Program-made: the position numbers and the translations under genes | DNA from: Dehalococcoidia bacterium | Lineage (GTDB): Bacteria > Chloroflexota > Dehalococcoidia > Plut-88900 | NCBI GenBank assembly: GCA_965249275.1 | Contig: CBDFLQ010000007.1 | Span: 544,001 to 608,000, forward strand | Reading direction: 5' to 3' | DNA length: 64,000 bases | Notes under the pieces: model-generated | Told to the model about the DNA's origin: nothing | The model's input: the letters and a program-made list of their open reading frames with translations, nothing else | The model's database searches: none | In this document: piece after piece, positions 6,101 through 42,288 of the stretch | Position numbering within the stretch: position 1 is the first letter of the stretch | How the letters are laid out: every line of letters starts with the position of its first letter

Positions 6101-7162
6101 ATGAAAATCTTCGATTACATGGAGCAGTACGGCTACGAGGAGCTAGCCCTCTATACTGATGAGGCAGCGGGTCTCAGGGCTCTGATTTGCATTCACGACA
6201 CCACGCTCGGGCCTGCCTGCGGGGGCACCCGCATGTGGCCCTTCGCCACCGAGGAAGAAGCGATCTTGGACGTGTTGCGCCTCGCGAGGGCCATGACCTA
6301 CAAGTCATCGCTGGCCGGTCTCGACTACGGGGGCGGCAAGGCCGTGATTATCGCCGACTCCACCACCGACAAGTCCGAGGCCCTATTCCGCGCCCACGGC
6401 CGTTTTGTCGACACCCTGGGGGGCCGTTTCATCACCACCGAGGACGTCGGCGTCGTGAACCAGGATGTTGTCCACATGCGCAAGGAGACCCGCTACGCTG
6501 CCGGTCTCCCCGAGTCCCACGGCGGACTGGGCGGGGCAGAGGTGATTACCGGGTTCGGAATCTACCAGGGGGCTCGGGCCTGCATGAAGGAGCTCACGGG
6601 CTCCGACTCCCTGGACGGGAAGACCGTCGCCATCCAAGGTTTCGGGAAGGTGGCCTACCACTACGCCCGACACCTGCGGGAAGATGGCGCCCGGATCATC
6701 GCCGCGGACATCAACGAGTCCAGAATTGCTGAGGCGGTTGCACTCGGGGCTTCCATAGTCGCGCCGGAAGAGATACATGCCGTCGAATGCGATATCTTCT
6801 CACCCTGCGCCCTGGGCGCCGCCCTAAACGACGACACCATACCTCAGATCAAGGCTCCCATAGTGGCAGGGGCCGCCAACAACCAACTTAAGGAACCTCA
6901 CCACGCAGACGCCCTCGCCGAGGCCGGCATCCTCTATGCACCCGATTACGCGATCAACGCCGGCGGTGTAATAACCGTAGCCTGTGAGGTTGAGGGTAAG
7001 AGCAGGGATGCCGCCATGTACCGGACTGCCAAGGTCTACGACACTCTTCTGGATATCTTCGCTCGGGCCAAGGCGGAGGGCATCACCACCGCCACCGCCG
7101 CAGACCGCCTCGCCGAGGACCGGATCCGCAGCGTGGCCCACATCAAGCGTACTTCCCCGTAG
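6101..7162 (+). CDS. Leucine (Glu/Leu/Phe/Val) dehydrogenase
   Basis: IHDTTLGPA.GGTRM, MTYK..GGGKAVI, QGFGKV, AGAANNQL and YAPDY.INAGG motifs. Confidence 0.92.
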   Translation: MKIFDYMEQYGYEELALYTDEAAGLRALICIHDTTLGPACGGTRMWPFATEEEAILDVLRLARAMTYKSSLAGLDYGGGKAVIIADSTTDKSEALFRAHGRFVDTLGGRFITTEDVGVVNQDVVHMRKETRYAAGLPESHGGLGGAEVITGFGIYQGARACMKELTGSDSLDGKTVAIQGFGKVAYHYARHLREDGARIIAADINESRIAEAVALGASIVAPEEIHAVECDIFSPCALGAALNDDTIPQIKAPIVAGAANNQLKEPHHADALAEAGILYAPDYAINAGGVITVACEVEGKSRDAAMYRTAKVYDTLLDIFARAKAEGITTATAADRLAEDRIRSVAHIKRTSP

Positions 7163-7208
7163 CTCACGGTCAGCCCTTACGCCGTAGTCCGGTATCTGAC
7201 TCGGAGCT

Positions 7209-7961
7209 CTACTCTTCGCGTATATTGGCCCGGGCGTCGTGGGGGTAGGTGTTGGTCTCGATCATTCGAGCCTTGACGTCTGTACGGAGCAGGTGAAGCT
7301 CCTCAACCGAGATGATCGGAGTCATCGGCGCAGTCTCGCCACCGCCCTTAATCTTCAGCTCGAAGCCCGTGTTCTCTCTCACCTCTCCGAGTGTGTGCCC
7401 CTGGTGCACAGAGACCAAATCCAATATACCCGACTCCTTCGATAGCTCCATCTTTGCCAGTGGGGTTATTACCACCACTTCCTTGGTCCGGCGGGCGAAG
7501 CCCTCCGGCGAGGAGGAAGCCGCCGAGACATAGTCAACCTTCTCCACGAATGTCCGCCTATCGTGGCGGGTTCGGAACAGGACTATTCGGGGCACGGCAT
7601 AGTAGAGGAGTCCCGTTCCATATTGACCCGGCATCCTGACCTCAGGCGAATCGGGGTCTCCGATGAGGTGCAGGTTGAAGTTGGCTTCCCGGTCTATCTC
7701 GATTCCGCTCATGAAGAAAAGGTCGAGTTTTCCCCGTTGGGCGAGGTAGTGGAAGTCCTTCCCCCCGACGAACGGGTTGTAGTAGTCGCTGTCCAGGACT
7801 ATGAATTCGCCATTCGGGGCGTGGGACGCTTCGGCTAGAAGAAGTGCGGAGGCCGGTATGAAAGACAGAGCACCACAGGCCGAGGTCTCCCAGTCATGCA
7901 CCTCCCGCGACAGGAGGACGGCCATGAACTCTTCGAATGTGCAGTTAGGCGGTTGAGACAC
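7209..7961 (-). CDS. Class I CoA-transferase-fold protein, beta subunit
   Basis: GTG start overlaps the alpha-subunit stop (TAGTG). FFMSGIEID..ANFNL, FVEKVDYVS, VITPLA and V.ENTGF motifs. Confidence 0.8.
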   Translation of the reverse strand: MSQPPNCTFEEFMAVLLSREVHDWETSACGALSFIPASALLLAEASHAPNGEFIVLDSDYYNPFVGGKDFHYLAQRGKLDLFFMSGIEIDREANFNLHLIGDPDSPEVRMPGQYGTGLLYYAVPRIVLFRTRHDRRTFVEKVDYVSAASSSPEGFARRTKEVVVITPLAKMELSKESGILDLVSVHQGHTLGEVRENTGFELKIKGGGETAPMTPIISVEELHLLRTDVKARMIETNTYPHDARANIREE

Positions 7962-8830
7962 TACCCCACCGCAGCAGGCGCCCGAACCCCCAGACCTCGC
8001 GACCGGCAATAGTCCTCGTGGTCGTGCAAGGCGTATACCTCATCGGCCAGGTAACCTTCAAAGGCCTCGTCGGAAGAGGAGGCCTCGAGGTACTTCTTCA
8101 TCTCCTCCACGTCCATGCCATAGAAGCCCGGGCACGCGCTGGGGTAGGCCCCGAAAGGCGCGTGGGCCACGGCCTTGATGTGGATTGCAGGAATGAAAGT
8201 CCCCGTTGGATCGTTCGGTGAGACCGAATCAACGACCTCCTCAACCGTCACTATCACCTTGTCCGACGCCTGCGCCAGCATCAAGGCTTCCCCGCCTTTG
8301 CTGACCAATACGTTGCCCCGACTGTCGCCCTTGCTTCCGTGGAACAATGCAACGTCAGGTGTTATGGCCTTGGCCATCACCACCATCTCCGTGGGGTCGA
8401 AGGGGTTGGGAGCCATGGTGAAGTCGTCTCTTTCCCTGATAACATCACTGCCGGCGTAGCCGAGGGTCGGGACGAAGGGGACGCCCATTGATCCAGCCTG
8501 GACCATGCTATAGAGCACGCCTCAGGTGTTGTCTTTCATTTTGATGCGGCCCTGCTTCTGGAGGCGCAGGTAGTTGGGCGCCACCCTGGCGAAGGGCTGG
8601 AAGTTAAAATCGCAGGTCTCCACAGTAGCCGTCCGACCCGCCCCGACCAGGAAGTCGAGATTCAGCGAAGCGCCCACCACACCGAGAGTGTTCAGGTCAG
8701 TGGTCCCGCCCCTGACTATCTCCCTCAATAGCGCCATTGGGGTGTAGTCCAGGCCCCCCATCATTATCACTTTGTCGCCGGTGCGTACCAGCTTGGCGGC
8801 CTGTTCCAGGGTTACGAGTTTGTCTCTCAT
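7961..8830 (-). CDS. Class I CoA-transferase-fold protein, alpha subunit, with in-frame UGA at codon 103 (candidate selenoprotein)
   Basis: ORFs 8522-8830 and 7961-8518 are in the same frame, separated only by TGA-GGC. Joined they give 289 aa with KLVTLEQAAK..GD, PMALLREI, GVPFVP..GSDV, PDVALFH..D.RGNV and IVTVEEVV motifs. Confidence 0.8.
8482..8521 (-). promoter_or_regulatory. Bacterial SECIS-like stem-loop directly 3' of the in-frame UGA
   Basis: Minus strand reads UGA GGCGU GCUCUAU AGCA UGGUCC AGGCU GGAUCA AUGGGC G. Upper stem UGGUCC/GGAUCA has a G-containing apical loop; lower stem is GCUC.AU/AUGGGC. Confidence 0.55.
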
Positions 8831-11481: not shown

Positions 11482-11967
11482 CTATTCTTCCTCTTCTTCC
11501 GGGGGCAGCTTATGCAACCTGTCCATGCTCTCCAGGAGGTCGGTATAAAGAGAGCCATGGATGTGTCCGACCTCATGCTCCAGGGCCTGGGCGAGCAGGT
11601 CCGTTGCCTTGATCCTCACCTCTTTCCCGTCAAGACCCTGCCCCTTCGCCAGGACAGTTTCCGCCCTCTTGATATCCCCCCTGTAGCCCGGAATGCTCAG
11701 GCAGCCCTCGCTTACGTCACGTTCACCGGTCTTCTTCACGATCTCCGGGTTGATAAGCGTGATAACGGGCTCATCCGGCACCTCAATGACGATGACTCTT
11801 AGGGAAACACCCACTTGTGGAGCTGCAATGCCTACGCCGTTGTACTCATGCATACTTTCAAGCATGTTCTCCGCCAGCTTCTTGATATACGCGTCTATGG
11901 CGCGGACACGTTTGGCCCTCTGGCGGAGTATCGGGTCGGGGGTGACTCTAAGCGGGAGTACGGCCAA
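11482..11967 (-). CDS. def: Peptide deformylase
   Basis: GVGIAAPQVG, EGCLSIPG and EHEVGHIHG motifs. Confidence 0.95.
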   Translation of the reverse strand: MAVLPLRVTPDPILRQRAKRVRAIDAYIKKLAENMLESMHEYNGVGIAAPQVGVSLRVIVIEVPDEPVITLINPEIVKKTGERDVSEGCLSIPGYRGDIKRAETVLAKGQGLDGKEVRIKATDLLAQALEHEVGHIHGSLYTDLLESMDRLHKLPPEEEEE

Positions 11968-12053
11968 TGGGAGTCTCTACGGCGTAACGAAATATCAAGT
12001 TTGATTCAGGCACCGGCCCATTCTATGAAATGGCCTTAGACCTGTAAAGGTCG

Positions 12054-12838
12054 TGTACTCGTTCGGTAGATTAGTGACACACCGGAGTTTCATTCAGTCC
12101 TCCTGAGGCGGACCCGCCCAAGGCGGATGTTCCATCTTCGATTGTGGGGTTTCGGTTTCCGTTCTGTCTGTTAGGTTTTGGGAAGGCGATGAAAGGTCCG
12201 TGACTAGGATCCAGGCCGGAGTTTGTTGCCGAGCCGTCAGCGCCGGGCTGGCTTATCCCCACATGTTCTCGGCTGTGGTCAGGGTTGTGTGGGGCCGATC
12301 CTTCCGGCAGCGGCACTTGACCGGACCGCTGACGGGGAACATGCCGCCTGAGGCGGACTTTCAGAACCGGCGTCCCGGTGCATCGGTCGTAGAGACGGAT
12401 GGCGGGGACGGCGGGACAAACAAGGCACGAGGGCCTTGCTAGACCGGGGGTCGGTTGACCTACCCGGGAAACCGGCGCGCAATGGGCCGGAGTAAACGCA
12501 TCCGGTAATGGGAAGCGTTGAATCGGCAGGGGCGTCGTAGGACGGGGCCTGCCGCGTATAGTCTGTGGACCTTCCATCGCCTGGGCGCTGGGGAAGGGAT
12601 AGCCGGGGCCTTTGTATGAGGAGATGGCGGCGTTTGCTTGAGCCGTGGGGCGGCATGGGCCGCCCTTTGGGATGGGCTTAGACGTTGAGTCCTCGGGGCC
12701 GGGGCTGGTGTTCCCCCTGGGTTGTGTGTTCCTCCTTTGGGTTTAGGGTGAGTGGCTGGCCAGCCGGGGGTGAATATAGTACATGTGTGCAAGTCTGGTC
12801 AAGGGGTTCGTGTCACTTTTGGGAGGGCAAGAGGCTCA
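12054..12838. mobile_element. Non-autonomous ~785-bp element, copy A (IS481-like left end, decayed right end), between priA and def
   Basis: Left end TGTACTCGTTCGGTAGATTAGTGACA is nearly identical to copy B. About 140 nt at the left and 200 nt at the right are homologous to 41488-42288. Right end TGTCAC...CTCA. Flanks GGTCG/TGTCA match only partly. Confidence 0.65.
12773..12802 (-). promoter_or_regulatory. Sigma70-type promoter inside element A, with LexA-like box
   Basis: TTGACC-18nt-TATATT on the minus strand, with GCAC-ACAT-GTAC abutting the -10. Same position as the promoter in copy B. Confidence 0.55.
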
Positions 12839-12840
12839 TG

Positions 12841-15294
12841 TCACAGCAGAGTCACCGGGTCCACATCCACCGACCACCCCTCCCCCAACCCCACCCGTTC
12901 CAAAAGCCGGGCGGGCTCGTCGCATCTGATCAGGACATGCCAGCGGTACCGGCCCTTCAGCCTGGGCACAAAACACGGGACCGGACCCAGAACGTCGGTC
13001 TGAGGCAGTCCAAGCCGGTCTCGCTCCTTTCGCAGCCGGACCGCAACCTTCTGGGATTCTGCCTCGGCCTTGGCTGGATCGAATTGTGAGTGGACCAGCC
13101 TCGTTAGCCGGGCGTAGGGGGGATAGCGATTTTGCCTTCGATAGCTGGTCTCCTGCCGGTAGAATCCGCCGTAGTCGTGGTTAGCGACAGCCCGGATTGC
13201 ATAGTGATCGGGGTTGAAAGTCTGCACCACCACCCTCCCTCCCCCCGGGCCCCGGCCCGCCCGCCCCGCCACCTGGGTCAAAAGCTGGAACACCCGCTCC
13301 CCCGCCCTGAAATCGGGGAAGTTGATTCCCACGTCGGCGCTCATCACACCTACCAGTGTCACTTGCGGCAGGTGCAATCCCTGGGCCACCATCTGAGTCC
13401 CAATAAGGATGTCGATCTGACCCGTCTGCAGCTTCTCCAATACTTCCTCATGCTCTGACGGCTTGGAGATCGAGTCCCGGTCCCATCGGAATGTCCTGGC
13501 ATTGGGAAATCTCAACCGCATCTCCTCTTCAAGCCGCTGTGTGCCCGTGCCCAAGTACCCGAGGTCCGGGCTGCCGCAGCCTCGGCACATCTCGGGTTTC
13601 CTGATGTTATAGCCGCAGTGGTGGCACACAAGTTTGCCCTTGGCACCGTGATAAATGAGCGCCACCTCGCAGCGCCGACACCTGACCACCAGCCCGCACT
13701 CTCGGCAGTGCACAGACGTGGCGAATCCTCTCCTGTTTATGAAGAGGATCACCTGCTCGCCCGCGTCCAGGGCGTTGGCCATCTCATTCCGCAAAAGGCG
13801 GCTGAACATGTCGCGGTTGCCGCTTCTAAGCTCCTGTTTCATGTCCACCACGTCTACCCTCGCCATTCCTCCAGCAGCTTCCTCCCCCGCTCCCGATACC
13901 CTGGGCCCGACCGTTATGCGTCTCGGCAGCTCCAGGTATTCCAGTTCTCCTATCGACGCTTTGTACGACGTCGTGACGTCGGGCGTCGCGCTTCCGAGAA
14001 TCACCACCGCCCCCGACAGCTTCCCCAGTTCCAGGGCCGCGTCCCTGGCGTGGTAGCGGGGCGCGGGCTCCGACTGCTTGTAGGAGCTGTCGTGCTCCTC
14101 ATCAAGCACTATCAGGCCGAGGTCCGGCTGCGGCGAAAACAATGCACTTCTCGGGCCTATCACCACCCCAAATTCGCCGTCTCGAATGCGCCACCATTCG
14201 TCGAACTTCTCCCCCGCTTTCAATCGGCTGTGCAAGACGGCGACCTGTCCCGGAAATCGGCTGCTGAATCTCTGAATCGTTTGCGGGGTGAGCGATATCT
14301 CCGGCACTAGCACGATGCCCCGGCGACCCAACTCCAGGGTGCGCTCCAGCGCCCTTAGGTAAAGCTCGGTCTTGCCGCTTCCGGTAACCCCCCGCAGCAG
14401 GAACGCATTCCCCTCTCCACCCACCGCCGACTTTTCCAAAGCCTCCTTGATCGGCGCCCAGGCCCGCTGCTGGTCTTCCGTAAGCGAGGGCGCGTCCATC
14501 CGCTCGTAGTGCCTCGACGCCAGGGGGTCCCTGATGACTCGCACCTTTCGGGTTCCGACGACACCTCTCTCCTTCAAAATCTTGATGGCGCCGGGAGATA
14601 TGCTGCGCTCTCGGAGCTCCGACGCGCTAACCCCTTCCGGCATCTCGAACAGCGCATCCAGCAGTGCTCGCTGGTTGACTGCATTTTTCTTCAAACGCGC
14701 CTGTACAACCGCCTCTTCCGCGCCTACTTTCAGGAAAAACTGTGTCTCGTACTTAGGGGAAACGACGGGTCTCGGCCACTCCGACTCCCGTCTCACCACC
14801 CCCGACCTCGCCAGTTTTTCCACCCTCACCTGTGCCCTGGGCCCCAGCTTCCTCTTCAACCCGACAATTTCCGTGCGCCCCACGTCTGCCAACGCGTCCA
14901 GCACCTTCTTCTCCGATTCCGACGGGACGAAGGAGTGAGGCCAAGGCGCTGGCTTAAGCGAATAAAAAGTCCGCACCTTGCGTCGGAAGCCATGAGGCAG
15001 CATCAATGCAGCAGCCTCGAAGAGGGAACAGAGGTATCGTCGGCTTATCCATTGGGCGAGGGAGAGCTGCCGGGCGCCGAGAATCGGAACAGGGTCGACA
15101 AGCCCGATTATTTCCCTCGTTTCCTCGAAGTTGGAGGAATTGGTAAGTTGGAAGACGATGCCCTGCAGACGGCGCGGCCCGAAGGGGACCCAAACGGAAT
15201 GACCGGGTCTCAGGTCCAGGTGGGAAGGAACGGAATAGGTGAAAGTCCGGTCGGGTTCCAGGGGTGCGTCGACGGCAATCTCAGCGAATGGCAT
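12841..15294 (-). CDS. priA: Primosomal protein N'
   Basis: GVTGSGKTE, LVPEISLTPQ, DEEHD.SYKQ..PRYHAR, Cys-rich Zn fingers, and QVAGRAGR. Confidence 0.96.
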   Translation of the reverse strand: MPFAEIAVDAPLEPDRTFTYSVPSHLDLRPGHSVWVPFGPRRLQGIVFQLTNSSNFEETREIIGLVDPVPILGARQLSLAQWISRRYLCSLFEAAALMLPHGFRRKVRTFYSLKPAPWPHSFVPSESEKKVLDALADVGRTEIVGLKRKLGPRAQVRVEKLARSGVVRRESEWPRPVVSPKYETQFFLKVGAEEAVVQARLKKNAVNQRALLDALFEMPEGVSASELRERSISPGAIKILKERGVVGTRKVRVIRDPLASRHYERMDAPSLTEDQQRAWAPIKEALEKSAVGGEGNAFLLRGVTGSGKTELYLRALERTLELGRRGIVLVPEISLTPQTIQRFSSRFPGQVAVLHSRLKAGEKFDEWWRIRDGEFGVVIGPRSALFSPQPDLGLIVLDEEHDSSYKQSEPAPRYHARDAALELGKLSGAVVILGSATPDVTTSYKASIGELEYLELPRRITVGPRVSGAGEEAAGGMARVDVVDMKQELRSGNRDMFSRLLRNEMANALDAGEQVILFINRRGFATSVHCRECGLVVRCRRCEVALIYHGAKGKLVCHHCGYNIRKPEMCRGCGSPDLGYLGTGTQRLEEEMRLRFPNARTFRWDRDSISKPSEHEEVLEKLQTGQIDILIGTQMVAQGLHLPQVTLVGVMSADVGINFPDFRAGERVFQLLTQVAGRAGRGPGGGRVVVQTFNPDHYAIRAVANHDYGGFYRQETSYRRQNRYPPYARLTRLVHSQFDPAKAEAESQKVAVRLRKERDRLGLPQTDVLGPVPCFVPRLKGRYRWHVLIRCDEPARLLERVGLGEGWSVDVDPVTLL

Positions 15295-30791: not shown

Positions 30792-30868
30792 GGTGGGCGT
30801 AGCCTAGCGGTTAAGGCACCAGGTTGTGGCCCTGGAGATCGAGGGTTCGAATCCCTTCGCTCACCCCA
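30792..30868 (+). tRNA. tRNA-His(GTG)
   Basis: G-1, acceptor GTGGGCG/CGCTCAC, anticodon arm CCAGG-TTGTGGC-CCTGG, GGTTCGAATCC, C73 and encoded CCA. Confidence 0.95.
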
Positions 30869-30902: not shown

Positions 30903-30978
30903 GCGCCTGTAGCTCAGCGGATAGAGCATCGGTCTTCGGAACCGAGGGTCGGGGGTTCGAATCCCTTCAGGCGCACCA
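30903..30978 (+). tRNA. tRNA-Arg(TCG)
   Basis: Acceptor GCGCCTG/CAGGCGC, anticodon arm TCGGT-CTTCGGA-ACCGA, GGTTCGAATCC and encoded CCA. Confidence 0.95.
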
Positions 30979-40542: not shown

Positions 40543-41379
40543 TCACGTGCTCTTCAATGACGGACTCGGACCACGGGGCCCTTCAGAACGCTGGCGCACC
40601 AGCAGAAACGCCCCGACTGCGAAGACCGCTACCATCGTTAGCAGAGATATTACATGCGCCTGATGCAAAGACCCTATTCTCCCCGGATCGTCCCGCGTGA
40701 ACTGCACAGCGAACCTTATAGCCGCATACGTCCCGAGATAGATCAGCATCACCATACCGTCGGGCTTCACCCGGCCGATGAGCCGCATTATGACGAAGAA
40801 CAGCAGTACGTCGCCCACCATCTCGTACGCAACGGATGGGTGATACGCAAGCTCCGACCCGCTCTCGGATACGGGAATCGCCGGTCTGCCCGTATTCAGG
40901 CCCGGCCAGTTGGCGTGGGTGTGGACCCAGCCCCACGGCAGACTCGTCCGGGTGCTGAAGTGCTCTCCATTGATCACGTCCCCCACCCGGCCAATAGTCT
41001 GAGCGACCAGCATCATGGGGGCGCTAATGTCGGCGATCTTGCCCACGGACTGCTTATTCAAAATCGCCCAGGTGACACCGGTAATCGTCCCACCTAGCAA
41101 AGCACCCCACAGCCCCACACCGCCATTCCAGATGGTGAATATCTTTACCGGGTCGTTTATGTAATAGGACCAGTTATCAAATACGTGAACCAGCCGAGCC
41201 CCCACCACCCCTCCCGGCACCGCCCACGCTGCGCAGGAATAGATGACCTGGGGGTCCATGCCCCTGTCCCGCGCAAGCCTCGCCGTGCCGAATACCGCAA
41301 ATGCCACCCCCAGGGCCGTGAATATCCCGTGCCACGACAACCCCCCAATCAGAAAGGGGTCCATGTTGATTTCAAGCAT
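40543..41379 (-). CDS. lgt: Prolipoprotein diacylglyceryl transferase
   Basis: SWHG, GARLVHV, WNGG..LWG, QTIGRVG..INGE, HPS..YE and RF.VQF.R motifs. Confidence 0.9.
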   Translation of the reverse strand: MLEINMDPFLIGGLSWHGIFTALGVAFAVFGTARLARDRGMDPQVIYSCAAWAVPGGVVGARLVHVFDNWSYYINDPVKIFTIWNGGVGLWGALLGGTITGVTWAILNKQSVGKIADISAPMMLVAQTIGRVGDVINGEHFSTRTSLPWGWVHTHANWPGLNTGRPAIPVSESGSELAYHPSVAYEMVGDVLLFFVIMRLIGRVKPDGMVMLIYLGTYAAIRFAVQFTRDDPGRIGSLHQAHVISLLTMVAVFAVGAFLLVRQRSEGPRGPSPSLKST

Positions 41380-41487
41380 CCTTGATCTCGGGCTCCGTCC
41401 TTATCGTATAAGTAGTCCGATCAGCTTCACTATCCGTTCACTTCACCCATCCAGTGTAGCCTCCCCGCCGAATGTCGGTCAATCCGC

Positions 41488-42288
41488 TGTACTTGTTCGG
41501 CAGGTTAGTGACACACCGGCCTTTTCTTCAGTCCTCCAGAGGCGGATGTTCCATCTTCGATTGTGGGGTTTCGGTTTCCGTTCTGTCTGTTGGGTTTTGG
41601 GAAGGCGATGGAAGACGCTTGCTGGACGCTACCCCCGTTCCTGTGCCTCGGGTGCTCCGACGCCCTGGGGCAAGGGCGTCCGGCCCGCTTTTGCCGCTGC
41701 TGCGGCCTCTGGGCCTGTATACGCTGGACATGGGCAGGGACCTTCAGGGCCACCGGGTCCGAGCCTGACTCCGGGGGGTTGGCTGCACCGCTTAAGGGCG
41801 GCTAGGAGGCTCGTCCAGCGTCCGGGTGGAGCCTCTTGCAGGCGTAATATGTCCAGGTTTGCCGGTGCGACCCGGAGCGCAGGGACCACCGGCTCCCGGC
41901 TTGATTGAGCGGACGGTGTACCGAGAGGACCTCGGCGCCGGGCCTATCCGACCGCTATTCCGCTTGAAGGAGCGGCATCTCCGTTAGGAGCCTCACATGG
42001 AACGATAGCGAACCAGGGCGTCTTTCCATCGCCTGGGGGTCAGGGAAGGGGGCACGGGACCCGGTGGGGATGAGGAGATGGCGACTTTCGCTTGTGCCGC
42101 GGGCCTGCGCGAGGGCCGTTGGGATGGGCTGAGGCGTTGAGTCCTCGGGGACCGGGGCTGGGCTTCCCCCTAGGTTGTGGTTCCTCCTTAAGGTAGTTGG
42201 GTTAGGTGGTCTAGACCTGGCTACAATATAGAACATACGTCTTATCATGTCAATAGGTTAATGTCACCACTCTATGTGAACGGGATCA
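41488..42288. mobile_element. Non-autonomous 801-bp element, copy B, with TG..CA ends, imperfect TIRs and 5-bp target duplication TCCGC
   Basis: TCCGC|TGTACTTGTTCGGCAGGTTAGTGACA ... TGTCACCACTCTATGTGAACGGGATCA|TCCGC. Homologous to 12054-12838. No transposase ORF. Confidence 0.75.
42225..42253 (-). promoter_or_regulatory. Near-consensus sigma70 promoter inside element B, with LexA-like box
   Basis: TTGACA-17nt-TATATT on the minus strand, with AGAC-GTAT-GTTC abutting the -10. Confidence 0.65.

Follow-up and report, generated by a model that had tools for sequence, protein, structure and literature searches.

Candidate folded RNAs in many copies: a promoter-bearing intergenic family of a Dehalococcoidia genus with probable terminase ancestry

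Orphan large noncoding RNAs (ncRNAs) such as OLE, ROOL, GOLLD, raiA, and HEARO/omega RNA are hundreds of nucleotides long, lie between genes under a promoter of their own, and contain helices maintained by compensatory changes, including a long-range closing stem; HEARO occurs in many copies that lack an open reading frame (ORF). Miniature inverted-repeat transposable elements (MITEs) and other promoter-bearing intergenic repeats, for example the Correia elements of Neisseria, ERIC, and REPIN, are multicopy and noncoding, can carry a promoter, and are present or absent between relatives. The unit described here resembles both groups, the former in size and fold and the latter in copy number and position. 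It also has points in common with the terminase large-subunit (TerL) genes of tailed phages and phage-like elements, and with retron msr-msd and DRT2, in which a stem surrounds a templating or cargo region.

The unit was recognized in a 64,000-nucleotide (nt) stretch, hereafter the window, of the genome of a Dehalococcoidia bacterium (GenBank assembly GCA_965249275.1, contig CBDFLQ010000007.1, positions 544,001 to 608,000 of the forward strand). An earlier note, made from the letters alone, had drawn attention to two loci in the window, here called copies A and B, in each of which a covarying long-range helix encloses a hairpin-dense domain of ~350-390 nt. We slightly favor, with a probability of roughly 0.55, the interpretation that this helix is the closing stem of a ~0.75-kb ncRNA, which would be transcribed from the minus strand under its own promoter and would belong to a multicopy, genus-wide superfamily that arose from a terminase fragment.

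A repeated unit closed by a covarying stem

When copy A is aligned with copy B, the flanks on the left (window 12050-12200) and on the right (12567-12830) are conserved and the sequence between them does not align; both loci are parts of one repeated unit of ~0.75 kb. When the flanks were compared by BLAST with their own assembly (2.9 Mb in 7 contigs, 87% complete, contamination 3.2%), the right flank gave 54 matches longer than 100 nt and the left flank 40 high-scoring segment pairs (HSPs), 31 of which were paired with a right-flank match at a gap of 330-620 nt. The unit is present at least 52 times in this genome. A further 67 loci were fetched from eight other genomes of the genus; 65 had both stem strands and 63 were kept, giving 115 copies in total (L062 and L075, with a false 3′ match, and L071 and L085, without a match, were excluded). 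A regular-expression scan that also filtered on composition detected fewer copies than did BLAST, and its results were set aside. Comparison of the 115 copies divided their central domains into 10 classes in this genome and at least 14 over all nine; copy A belongs to class 1 (23/115 copies) and copy B to class 3 (12/115).

The long-range helix of both copies was confirmed at the positions given in table 1 by direct reading of the window sequence, and its pairing was then compared in 39 copies of mixed class. In minus-strand sense, the stem strands read GGCGAUGGAAG ... CUUCCAUCGCC, and in this genome a distance of 299-531 nt separates them in 52 of 54 copies examined; the same two strands are present in the 63 copies kept from the sister genomes. 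Over 15 pairs, 97.8% of 584 cells were paired, compared with 91.4% after shuffling (0/500 as high), and sliding the partner strand by 1-3 columns left at most 49.8% of the cells paired. The covariation score was 0.232 versus 0.119 in the shuffles (0/500). The outer 11 bp are nearly invariant, and the inner part is mainly GGUCC/GGACC or GACGC/GCGUC, a difference that the earlier note had read as three compensatory pairs. Indeed, three adjacent pairs change on both sides across the 39 copies (AU 21/GC 17, CG 21/UA 16, and GC 20/CG 17), and a fourth varies as GC 38/AU 1. One further full compensation, GGCAAUGG/CCAUUGCC, was found alongside three uncompensated A.C cases. A test for covariation on more copies, of the kind that the note had proposed, came out in its favor, with both paired cells and covariation score above all 500 shuffles. 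The proposed comparison of folding energies with dinucleotide shuffles agreed with it, since both copies fold better than their shuffles on either strand (copy A, z = -4.99 on the minus and -5.36 on the plus strand; copy B, -2.97 and -2.45).

At the right edge of both copies stands a promoter that reads leftward, and a near-consensus promoter is kept in all full copies of the family. In the predicted helices of class 1, G.U pairs occupy 121 cells and A.C mismatches 22 (23 copies); in four other classes the numbers are 69 and 4 (32 copies). The single A.C mismatch of the copy A stem on the plus strand is likewise a G.U pair on the minus strand. Because A.C on one strand corresponds to G.U on the other, this excess, together with the orientation of the promoter, points to an RNA of the minus strand rather than of the plus strand, as which it had first been written. 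In addition, contigs from the RNA libraries of two studies cover 12131-12697 at 90-95% likeness, which is a weak hint of transcription. No intrinsic terminator was found at copies A and B. Rho is encoded in all eight sister genomes, and transcription would probably end by Rho in the C/A-rich tail.

The flagged copies have no conserved ORF. The stem-to-stem lengths are distributed over the three remainders modulo 3 as 42/45/28 (115 copies), all three frames are interrupted by stops in most copies, frameshifts distinguish the copies of class 1 from one another, and the lengths of the 5′ domain show a continuous spread without 3-periodicity. Helices kept by compensatory and G.U changes and the lack of a conserved reading frame are what is generally asked of a structured ncRNA, and both are found here among sequences that are related to one another.

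Read in RNA sense, the unit consists of a GTGACAC palindrome, the promoter, a 5′ hairpin, a folded 5′ domain of ~180 nt, the closing stem (15-20 bp) around a domain of 300-530 nt, and a C/A-rich tail of ~60-100 nt (table 1). The letters of the 5′ hairpin differ between copies and its self-complementarity is kept. An AAGGAGG motif in the 5′ domain is predicted to pair with CCCUUCCC directly ahead of the closing stem, and an inner GAGGA/UCCUC helix surrounds covarying hairpins; among the 30 pairs predicted for this domain from 28 copies, six show compensatory change. Over the 115 copies the tail is composed of 40% C, 40% A, 11% G, and 9% T, with a CAACYGAA-like motif in 110. Optional parts include a hairpin insertion in 40/115 copies and a 33-nt 3′ module in 34/115.

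Table 1. Features of copies A and B in the window, with neighboring host promoters and three family-2 loci outside the window
Feature	Position	Strand	Remarks
Copy A promoter module: GTGACAC palindrome 12810-12816, -35 TTGACC 12802-12797, 18-nt spacer, -10 TATATT 12778-12773	12773-12821	-	10/12 consensus matches; 2 sites found vs 0.2 expected
Copy A probable transcript start	near 12766	-	
Copy A 5′ domain: terminal hairpin 12754-12765; Shine-Dalgarno-like AAGGAGG 12731-12737, predicted partner CCCUUCCC	12583-12766	-	28-copy comparison
Copy A closing stem, 5′ strand (AGGCGAUGGAAGGUCC..GACUA)	12559-12582	-	
Copy A central domain, class 1, multi-hairpin fold	12207-12558	-	
Copy A closing stem, 3′ strand (UAGUC..GGACCUUUCAUCGCCU)	12184-12206	-	one G.U pair
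Copy A C/A-rich, G-poor tail (UCCCAAAACCUAACAGACAGAACGGAAACCGAAACCCCACAA..CUGAAU) with optional hairpin insertion UCGAAGAU..GGAGGA	12086-12183	-	
Copy A optional 3′ module CCGGUGUGUCACUAAUCUACCGAACGAGUACAC	12053-12085	-	abuts host promoter
Host def promoter TTTACA-17-TAGAAT, directly downstream of unit	12020-12048	-	kept in all 9 genus genomes, including one without the element
Copy B promoter TTGACA-17-TATATT	42225-42253	-	11/12 consensus matches
Copy B 5′ domain	42035-42218	-	included in 28-copy comparison
Copy B closing stem, 5′ strand (AGGCGAUGGAAAGACGC..CUGG)	42013-42034	-	
Copy B central domain, class 3	41626-42012	-	
Copy B closing stem, 3′ strand (CCAG..GCGUCUUCCAUCGCCU)	41603-41625	-	
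Copy B C/A-rich tail	41520-41602	-	
Copy B 3′ module	41487-41519	-	
Host promoter-like site TTGACC-18-TACACT ahead of lgt-like gene	41453-41482	-	gene name by eye from translation
Family 2, locus L116	C5:157046-157891		Shine-Dalgarno and ATG; ORFs of 216-346 aa over all 13 family-2 loci
Family 2, locus L118	C5:734689-735477		as above
Family 2, locus L124	C6:946595-947470		as above

Modular central domains and distribution of the family

The earlier note had described the enclosed sequences as unrelated. This holds for copy A versus copy B, by BLAST and by profile comparison; it does not hold in the sense of a centre peculiar to each copy, since each is a class that recurs in many copies. Classes 4, 5, 7, and 8 can be aligned and share one architecture, in which corresponding positions form helices of different sequence. 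One long-range pair, for example, is AU 12/GC 10/UA 8, and hairpins GCUCCU/AGGAGC, CCCCU/AGGGG, and UCUCU/AGAGA occupy one site. In this alignment 98.0% of 1005 cells were paired versus 94.7% after shuffling (0/500), and the covariation score was 0.157 versus 0.091 (0/500), with the structure being derived from the same alignment and the sequences being related. The view that selection acts on the fold is supported in that compensatory or G.U changes maintain pairing across classes, both in the closing stem and in six or more other helices of the central domain.

Different parts of the unit are combined in different ways. Both subtypes of the 5′ hairpin occur with class 2 (8 + 7 copies) and with class 3 (8 + 3 copies), and most of the larger classes contain a mixture of tail types and of optional modules. 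Between priA and def, four genomes have a unit of class 1, three have one of class 7, and a single genome has one of class 12. With modules reassorting and one site carrying different classes, the picture of a conserved scaffold with an exchangeable structured cassette, as the note had put it, is a fair description of the family. The modules were most likely exchanged by recombination through the invariant stem and flanks, and such reshuffling would make the centre look like a cassette. A site-specific inversion of the segment between the stem strands was also considered and was ruled out, because no centre was found in the opposite orientation (0 minus-strand matches among 115).

Within the set of genomes searched, the family occurs in its own genus alone. 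BLAST with the 5′ domain gave matches in 8/8 genomes of the same genus and in 0/32 others, three of which belong to the same family of organisms. A covariance model of the 5′ domain, run with stricter filters, detected it in this genome and in 4/4 genomes of the same genus, and in 0/146 other genomes of the class. A 17-mer scan yielded, among the matches listed, mostly single chance matches in unrelated taxa, with several per record in chromosomes of Dehalococcoidia metagenome-assembled genomes (MAGs) alone; it was not used for distribution. No description of such a family was found in the literature at the level of titles and abstract openings.

Comparison with Rfam returned no family for the unit. 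The whole window at gathering threshold gave two tRNAs alone, the region 11900-12900 gave one chance microRNA match at E-values up to 10, and twelve further loci of varied classes gave a neighboring 5S rRNA alone. Of the roles suggested in the earlier note, a large ncRNA fits best; a ribozyme is left without support by the Rfam comparison, and nothing was found in favor of a guide RNA.

Two other features were noted in the course of these searches. The two tRNA genes are adjacent (window 30793-30865 and 30903-30975, plus strand; 67.0 and 70.7 bits) and are unrelated to the unit. Contig C4 (~6650-8090) contains a second, diverged copy of the copy B locus and its downstream flank when compared with C7:584839-586190 (window ~40840-42190), and the flank in one sister genome matches both loci at 83%, pointing to redundancy in the assembly or to a variant strain within the MAG.

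Relationship to terminase genes and a sister family

The promoter module of the unit also stands alone in this genome. In two cases it heads a small ORF followed by a gene for a 462-aa protein, which matches terminase-large-subunit PHROGs (E = 2.6e-6, 3.8e-6, and 2.5e-4); the genome has two full-length TerL-like gene copies. These pairs, in which the small ORF is basic, are located at C7:110669-112614 (L254:208-2015) and C5:3-2120 (L255). The first is followed by ordinary BamB-like and YidC genes without a full prophage, and the second lies at a contig end. A third stand-alone module, in the C7:348958 region (minus strand), precedes five tandem ~73-nt repeats (GGATGCCTGCGGCAATGCGCCGCGGAAGAA plus a similar spacer, by eye), which run into an ORF that by eye resembles the small ORF of the terminase-like operons.

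The same module also stands ahead of 13 loci, all outside the window, whose body shares motifs and a shortened closing stem with the flagged copies. We call these loci family 2 and the flagged copies and their relatives family 1. Measured from the ATG through the last base of the 3′ stem strand, 12 of the 13 loci have a length divisible by three, and ten different lengths from 525 to 750 nt are represented; the thirteenth has no recognizable 3′ strand. Frame 0 is free of stops, and each other frame has 1-6. At least 461 ORFs of this type have been called in public data.

A profile of the family-2 ORF aligned with the TerL-like protein by hhalign with a probability of 100% (E = 7e-51, 43% identity over 180 columns, residues 192-380); the profile does not align to the small upstream ORF of the terminase operon. 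In tblastn searches, TerL matched 12/13 family-2 copies and 11/115 family-1 copies (classes 4, 5, 8, and 11), and a class-5 core matches a terL gene even at the DNA level (73% over 265 nt, E = 1e-34). The stem strands correspond to TerL codons ~229-234 (GKGRF) and 361-365 (GPSIV), and in the intact terL gene these segments are already predicted to pair over 9+3 bp (-17.4 kcal/mol). These sequence comparisons show that the superfamily descends from a fragment of a terminase large-subunit gene. Class 1 resembles class 5 over its first ~64 nt (another class-1 copy gave E = 6.6e-6), and several motifs agree by eye, so that terminase ancestry is likely for copy A too, although indirectly.

Could the flagged copies encode a terminase-fragment polypeptide, as the open frame of family 2 might suggest? 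Copy A does contain a minus-strand ORF of 168 aa, and both the 12 open family-2 frames and the hundreds of ORFs called in public data lend some weight to this idea. However, the lengths, stops, and frameshifts of family 1 described above are not those of a coding sequence, and even in family 2 the three codon positions change equally (0.253/0.256/0.251). The family-2 product belongs to no Pfam or PHROG family, and AlphaFold2 predicted no fold for it from an alignment of 52 sequences (predicted local distance difference test score, pLDDT, 47; predicted template-modeling score, pTM, 0.12). We consider a protein-coding role of the flagged copies very unlikely.

Another possibility is that the unit is the template RNA of a reverse transcriptase (RT), similar to retrons or DRT2, in which the stem would join the ends of the template. 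The region enclosed in family 2, stop-free and a multiple of three in length, recalls never-ending ORF templates, and the earlier note had listed a single-stranded intermediate among the possible roles. However, no match to RVT_1 was found in this genome or in five of the eight sister genomes that carry the family, leaving six of nine genus genomes without an RT, and no RT gene was seen beside any copy examined. This explanation is close to refuted.

Genomic setting, possible role, and comparison with known systems

On a crude ORF map, the next downstream gene is co-oriented with the unit in 38/52 copies and the upstream gene in 17/52; 14/52 copies face away from the next gene. Downstream genes include def, genes similar to lgt, argC, proA, leuS, and glnS (these five by eye), and genes for tRNA, transfer-messenger RNA (tmRNA), and 5S rRNA. 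At the priA-def site the unit is found in 8 of the 9 genus genomes while the flanking genes drop to 72-74% identity. In the remaining genome (G003, locus L044) the unit is missing, and a promoter homologous to that of the unit is followed by ~230 nt of unrelated AT-rich sequence and then by the conserved def promoter, which looks like a cassette replacement.

Presence/absence polymorphism was observed at five loci where G001, G003, or G007 has a unit and this genome has none, one of them ahead of a 5S rRNA gene and one ahead of a tmRNA gene. On the right side, similarity resumes at or a few nt before the host -35 element in four of the five filled/empty pairs (hexamers by eye); in the fifth pair, the point of resumption is farther from the unit, immediately ahead of the tmRNA gene. 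Boundaries on the left are not clean-cut: REP-like repeats and replacement of sequence were seen there, as was a possible 9-nt duplication (TTTGTYGMC) in one of the five pairs, and the junctions are blurred because the long upstream-flank HSPs are ~77% to 92% identical. There are no terminal inverted repeats: the 7-8-nt GTGACAC palindrome lies near both ends and is not terminal, for ~20 conserved nt lie beyond its 3′ occurrence and 81/115 copies lack that module. A clean cut-and-paste signature of terminal inverted repeats and target-site duplication was therefore looked for and not found at the five filled/empty pairs. As far as they were followed, the promoter modules that stand alone head terminase-like operons and family-2 loci rather than transposase genes, no systematic transposase search having been made. 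These data are best explained by old copies that are mostly inherited vertically and are gained and lost at promoter-proximal sites.

Small hairpin repeats that resemble REPs (repetitive extragenic palindromes) are scattered through the genus genomes in several families (for example, GAAAGTCCGCCTCAGGCGG, CGTCATTCCGAGGCTCCGCGAGGAATCTGGGG, and GGGGGATCAAGGGGGTGAGGGTTCC). They sit in variable loops and upstream of the units' promoters, and one is located at window 12338-12362.

The position of the units raises the question of whether they are cis-acting leaders or insulators that tune the host promoter downstream, through read-through, occlusion, or a ligand-sensing fold. The bias toward co-oriented downstream genes and the right junctions next to the host -35 element agree with such a role. 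On the other hand, the downstream genes are unrelated in function, 14 copies face away from the next gene, and the host promoter persists at sites that lack the unit, indicating that the host gene is independent of the unit. With neighbors so diverse, each having its own promoter regardless of the unit, regulation of the neighboring host gene is unlikely. Likewise, the unit does not have the properties of a riboswitch or other cis-regulatory leader, because a separate host promoter lies between unit and gene and the functions of the downstream genes vary.

A more serious alternative is that the unit is a repeat at the level of DNA, i.e., amplified and decaying copies of a terminase fragment, whether as a mobile cassette of MITE-like or REP-associated type or as relics that recombination has dispersed. 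Its inverted repeats would then have a role in DNA or no role, and any RNA would be a by-product. Descent from a gene fragment would suit this explanation, as would the mosaic structure, the differences in presence between species, the frequent flanking by REP-like repeats, the equal folding of both strands, and the scarcity of covariation inside class 1. However, G.U pairs greatly outnumber A.C mismatches in the helices, which is unexpected for double-stranded or cruciform DNA; compensatory changes maintain the helices across classes, and the promoter is kept in all full copies. Retention at one site while the neighboring genes diverge to 72-74%, the absence of terminal inverted repeats and of a consistent target duplication, and the lack of any inverted centre also speak against it. 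Mainly because of the RNA-type substitution pattern and the kept promoters, we regard a pure DNA repeat as possible, with odds well below those of a folded RNA.

If the unit is such an RNA, its history and expression may be pictured as follows. The superfamily would have begun as an internal piece of terL (codons ~190-370) together with the promoter of that operon. Family 2 would have kept the frame open, while family 1 would have lost it and been kept as a folded RNA, with 5′ domain, central domain, and tail being reshuffled as modules. A near-consensus sigma-70-type promoter, preceded by the GTGACAC palindrome, would start the transcript; the 5′ hairpin and the ~180-nt 5′ domain would be followed by the closing stem, joining the ends of the multi-helix domain, and by the C/A-rich tail, which would end a few bases before the -35 element of the host gene, where Rho probably acts. 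Our guess is that the unit functions at the RNA level and that the promoter module it shares with the terminase operon turns both on together; it might, for instance, serve as a decoy or sponge and capture a factor with affinity for the promoter or the terL message. In a bolder version, which we think improbable, the copies would be a domesticated array of decoys built from the packaging operon of a phage, in which dozens of terminase-operon promoters would each produce an RNA imitating the folded terL message; when a related phage or phage-like element turns on its late genes, the array would soak up the activator of the promoter or a factor binding terL mRNA. In that case the reassorting central classes would track terL variants, and the family would be an RNA-based defence or control system derived from a gene fragment, without a protein component of its own.

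Several observations weigh against the interpretation as a terminase-derived RNA. The three switches in the closing stem separate just two deep lineages and thus represent few independent events, and in the inner part of the stem C.A occurs in 8 copies (G.U on the other strand) versus U.G in 4. Both strands fold about equally well, so that folding energy does not pick a strand. Of the 102 pairs predicted in class 1 (23 copies), just 4 have changed in a compensatory manner, with a covariation term of -0.12; with so little variation within the class, most of the support comes from comparison between classes, where the alignments are less certain and the sequences are related. The RNA-library matches are contigs of relatives or paralogues that carry neither strand, ends, nor abundance. 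The Rho RNA-binding domain was not found in this 87%-complete assembly, probably owing to an assembly gap. Copies A and B have no match to the terminase profile; copy A is linked to terL through class 5, and no link was found for copy B. Finally, the decoy idea derives solely from the shared promoter module and the gene of origin.

If the RNA interpretation is correct, a family of 50 or more folded RNA genes, each driven by a promoter, has arisen from part of a phage DNA-packaging gene, and units of this kind fill roughly 2% of a small genome by our arithmetic. It would then clearly illustrate how a structured RNA family can originate from coding sequence, with the fold kept by RNA-type selection and the coding sense lost, and family 2, with its open frame and drifting residues, would make the transition from coding to RNA visible. 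Because the units lie at host promoters and share their own promoter with terminase operons, a regulatory or anti-phage role is directly testable. In addition, gene callers have deposited hundreds of 'hypothetical proteins' from such units, and surveys for new ncRNAs can be expected to come upon the family repeatedly.

By the tests that define these groups, the unit is neither an orphan large ncRNA nor a promoter-bearing repeat. It differs from the orphan large ncRNAs in having no match to an Rfam covariance model, in occurring in 50 or more copies per genome within one genus and beside host promoters, in its reassorting central classes, and in its apparent descent from a terminase gene with a sister branch that has an open frame. 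Unlike MITEs, it is ~0.75-1 kb long, lacks terminal inverted repeats and a consistent target duplication, shows RNA-type selection on the fold, and is kept at orthologous sites over long divergence. Compared with retron msr-msd and DRT2, whose stem around a templating or cargo region is matched by the stop-free, in-frame region of family 2, the unit has no associated RT and is dispersed in dozens of copies. The TerL genes share the promoter module, and their residues ~190-390 are homologous to family 2 and to classes 4, 5, 8, and 11; the units differ from them in containing an internal fragment alone, with residues that drift, and the flagged copies have neither a frame nor detectable similarity at the protein level.

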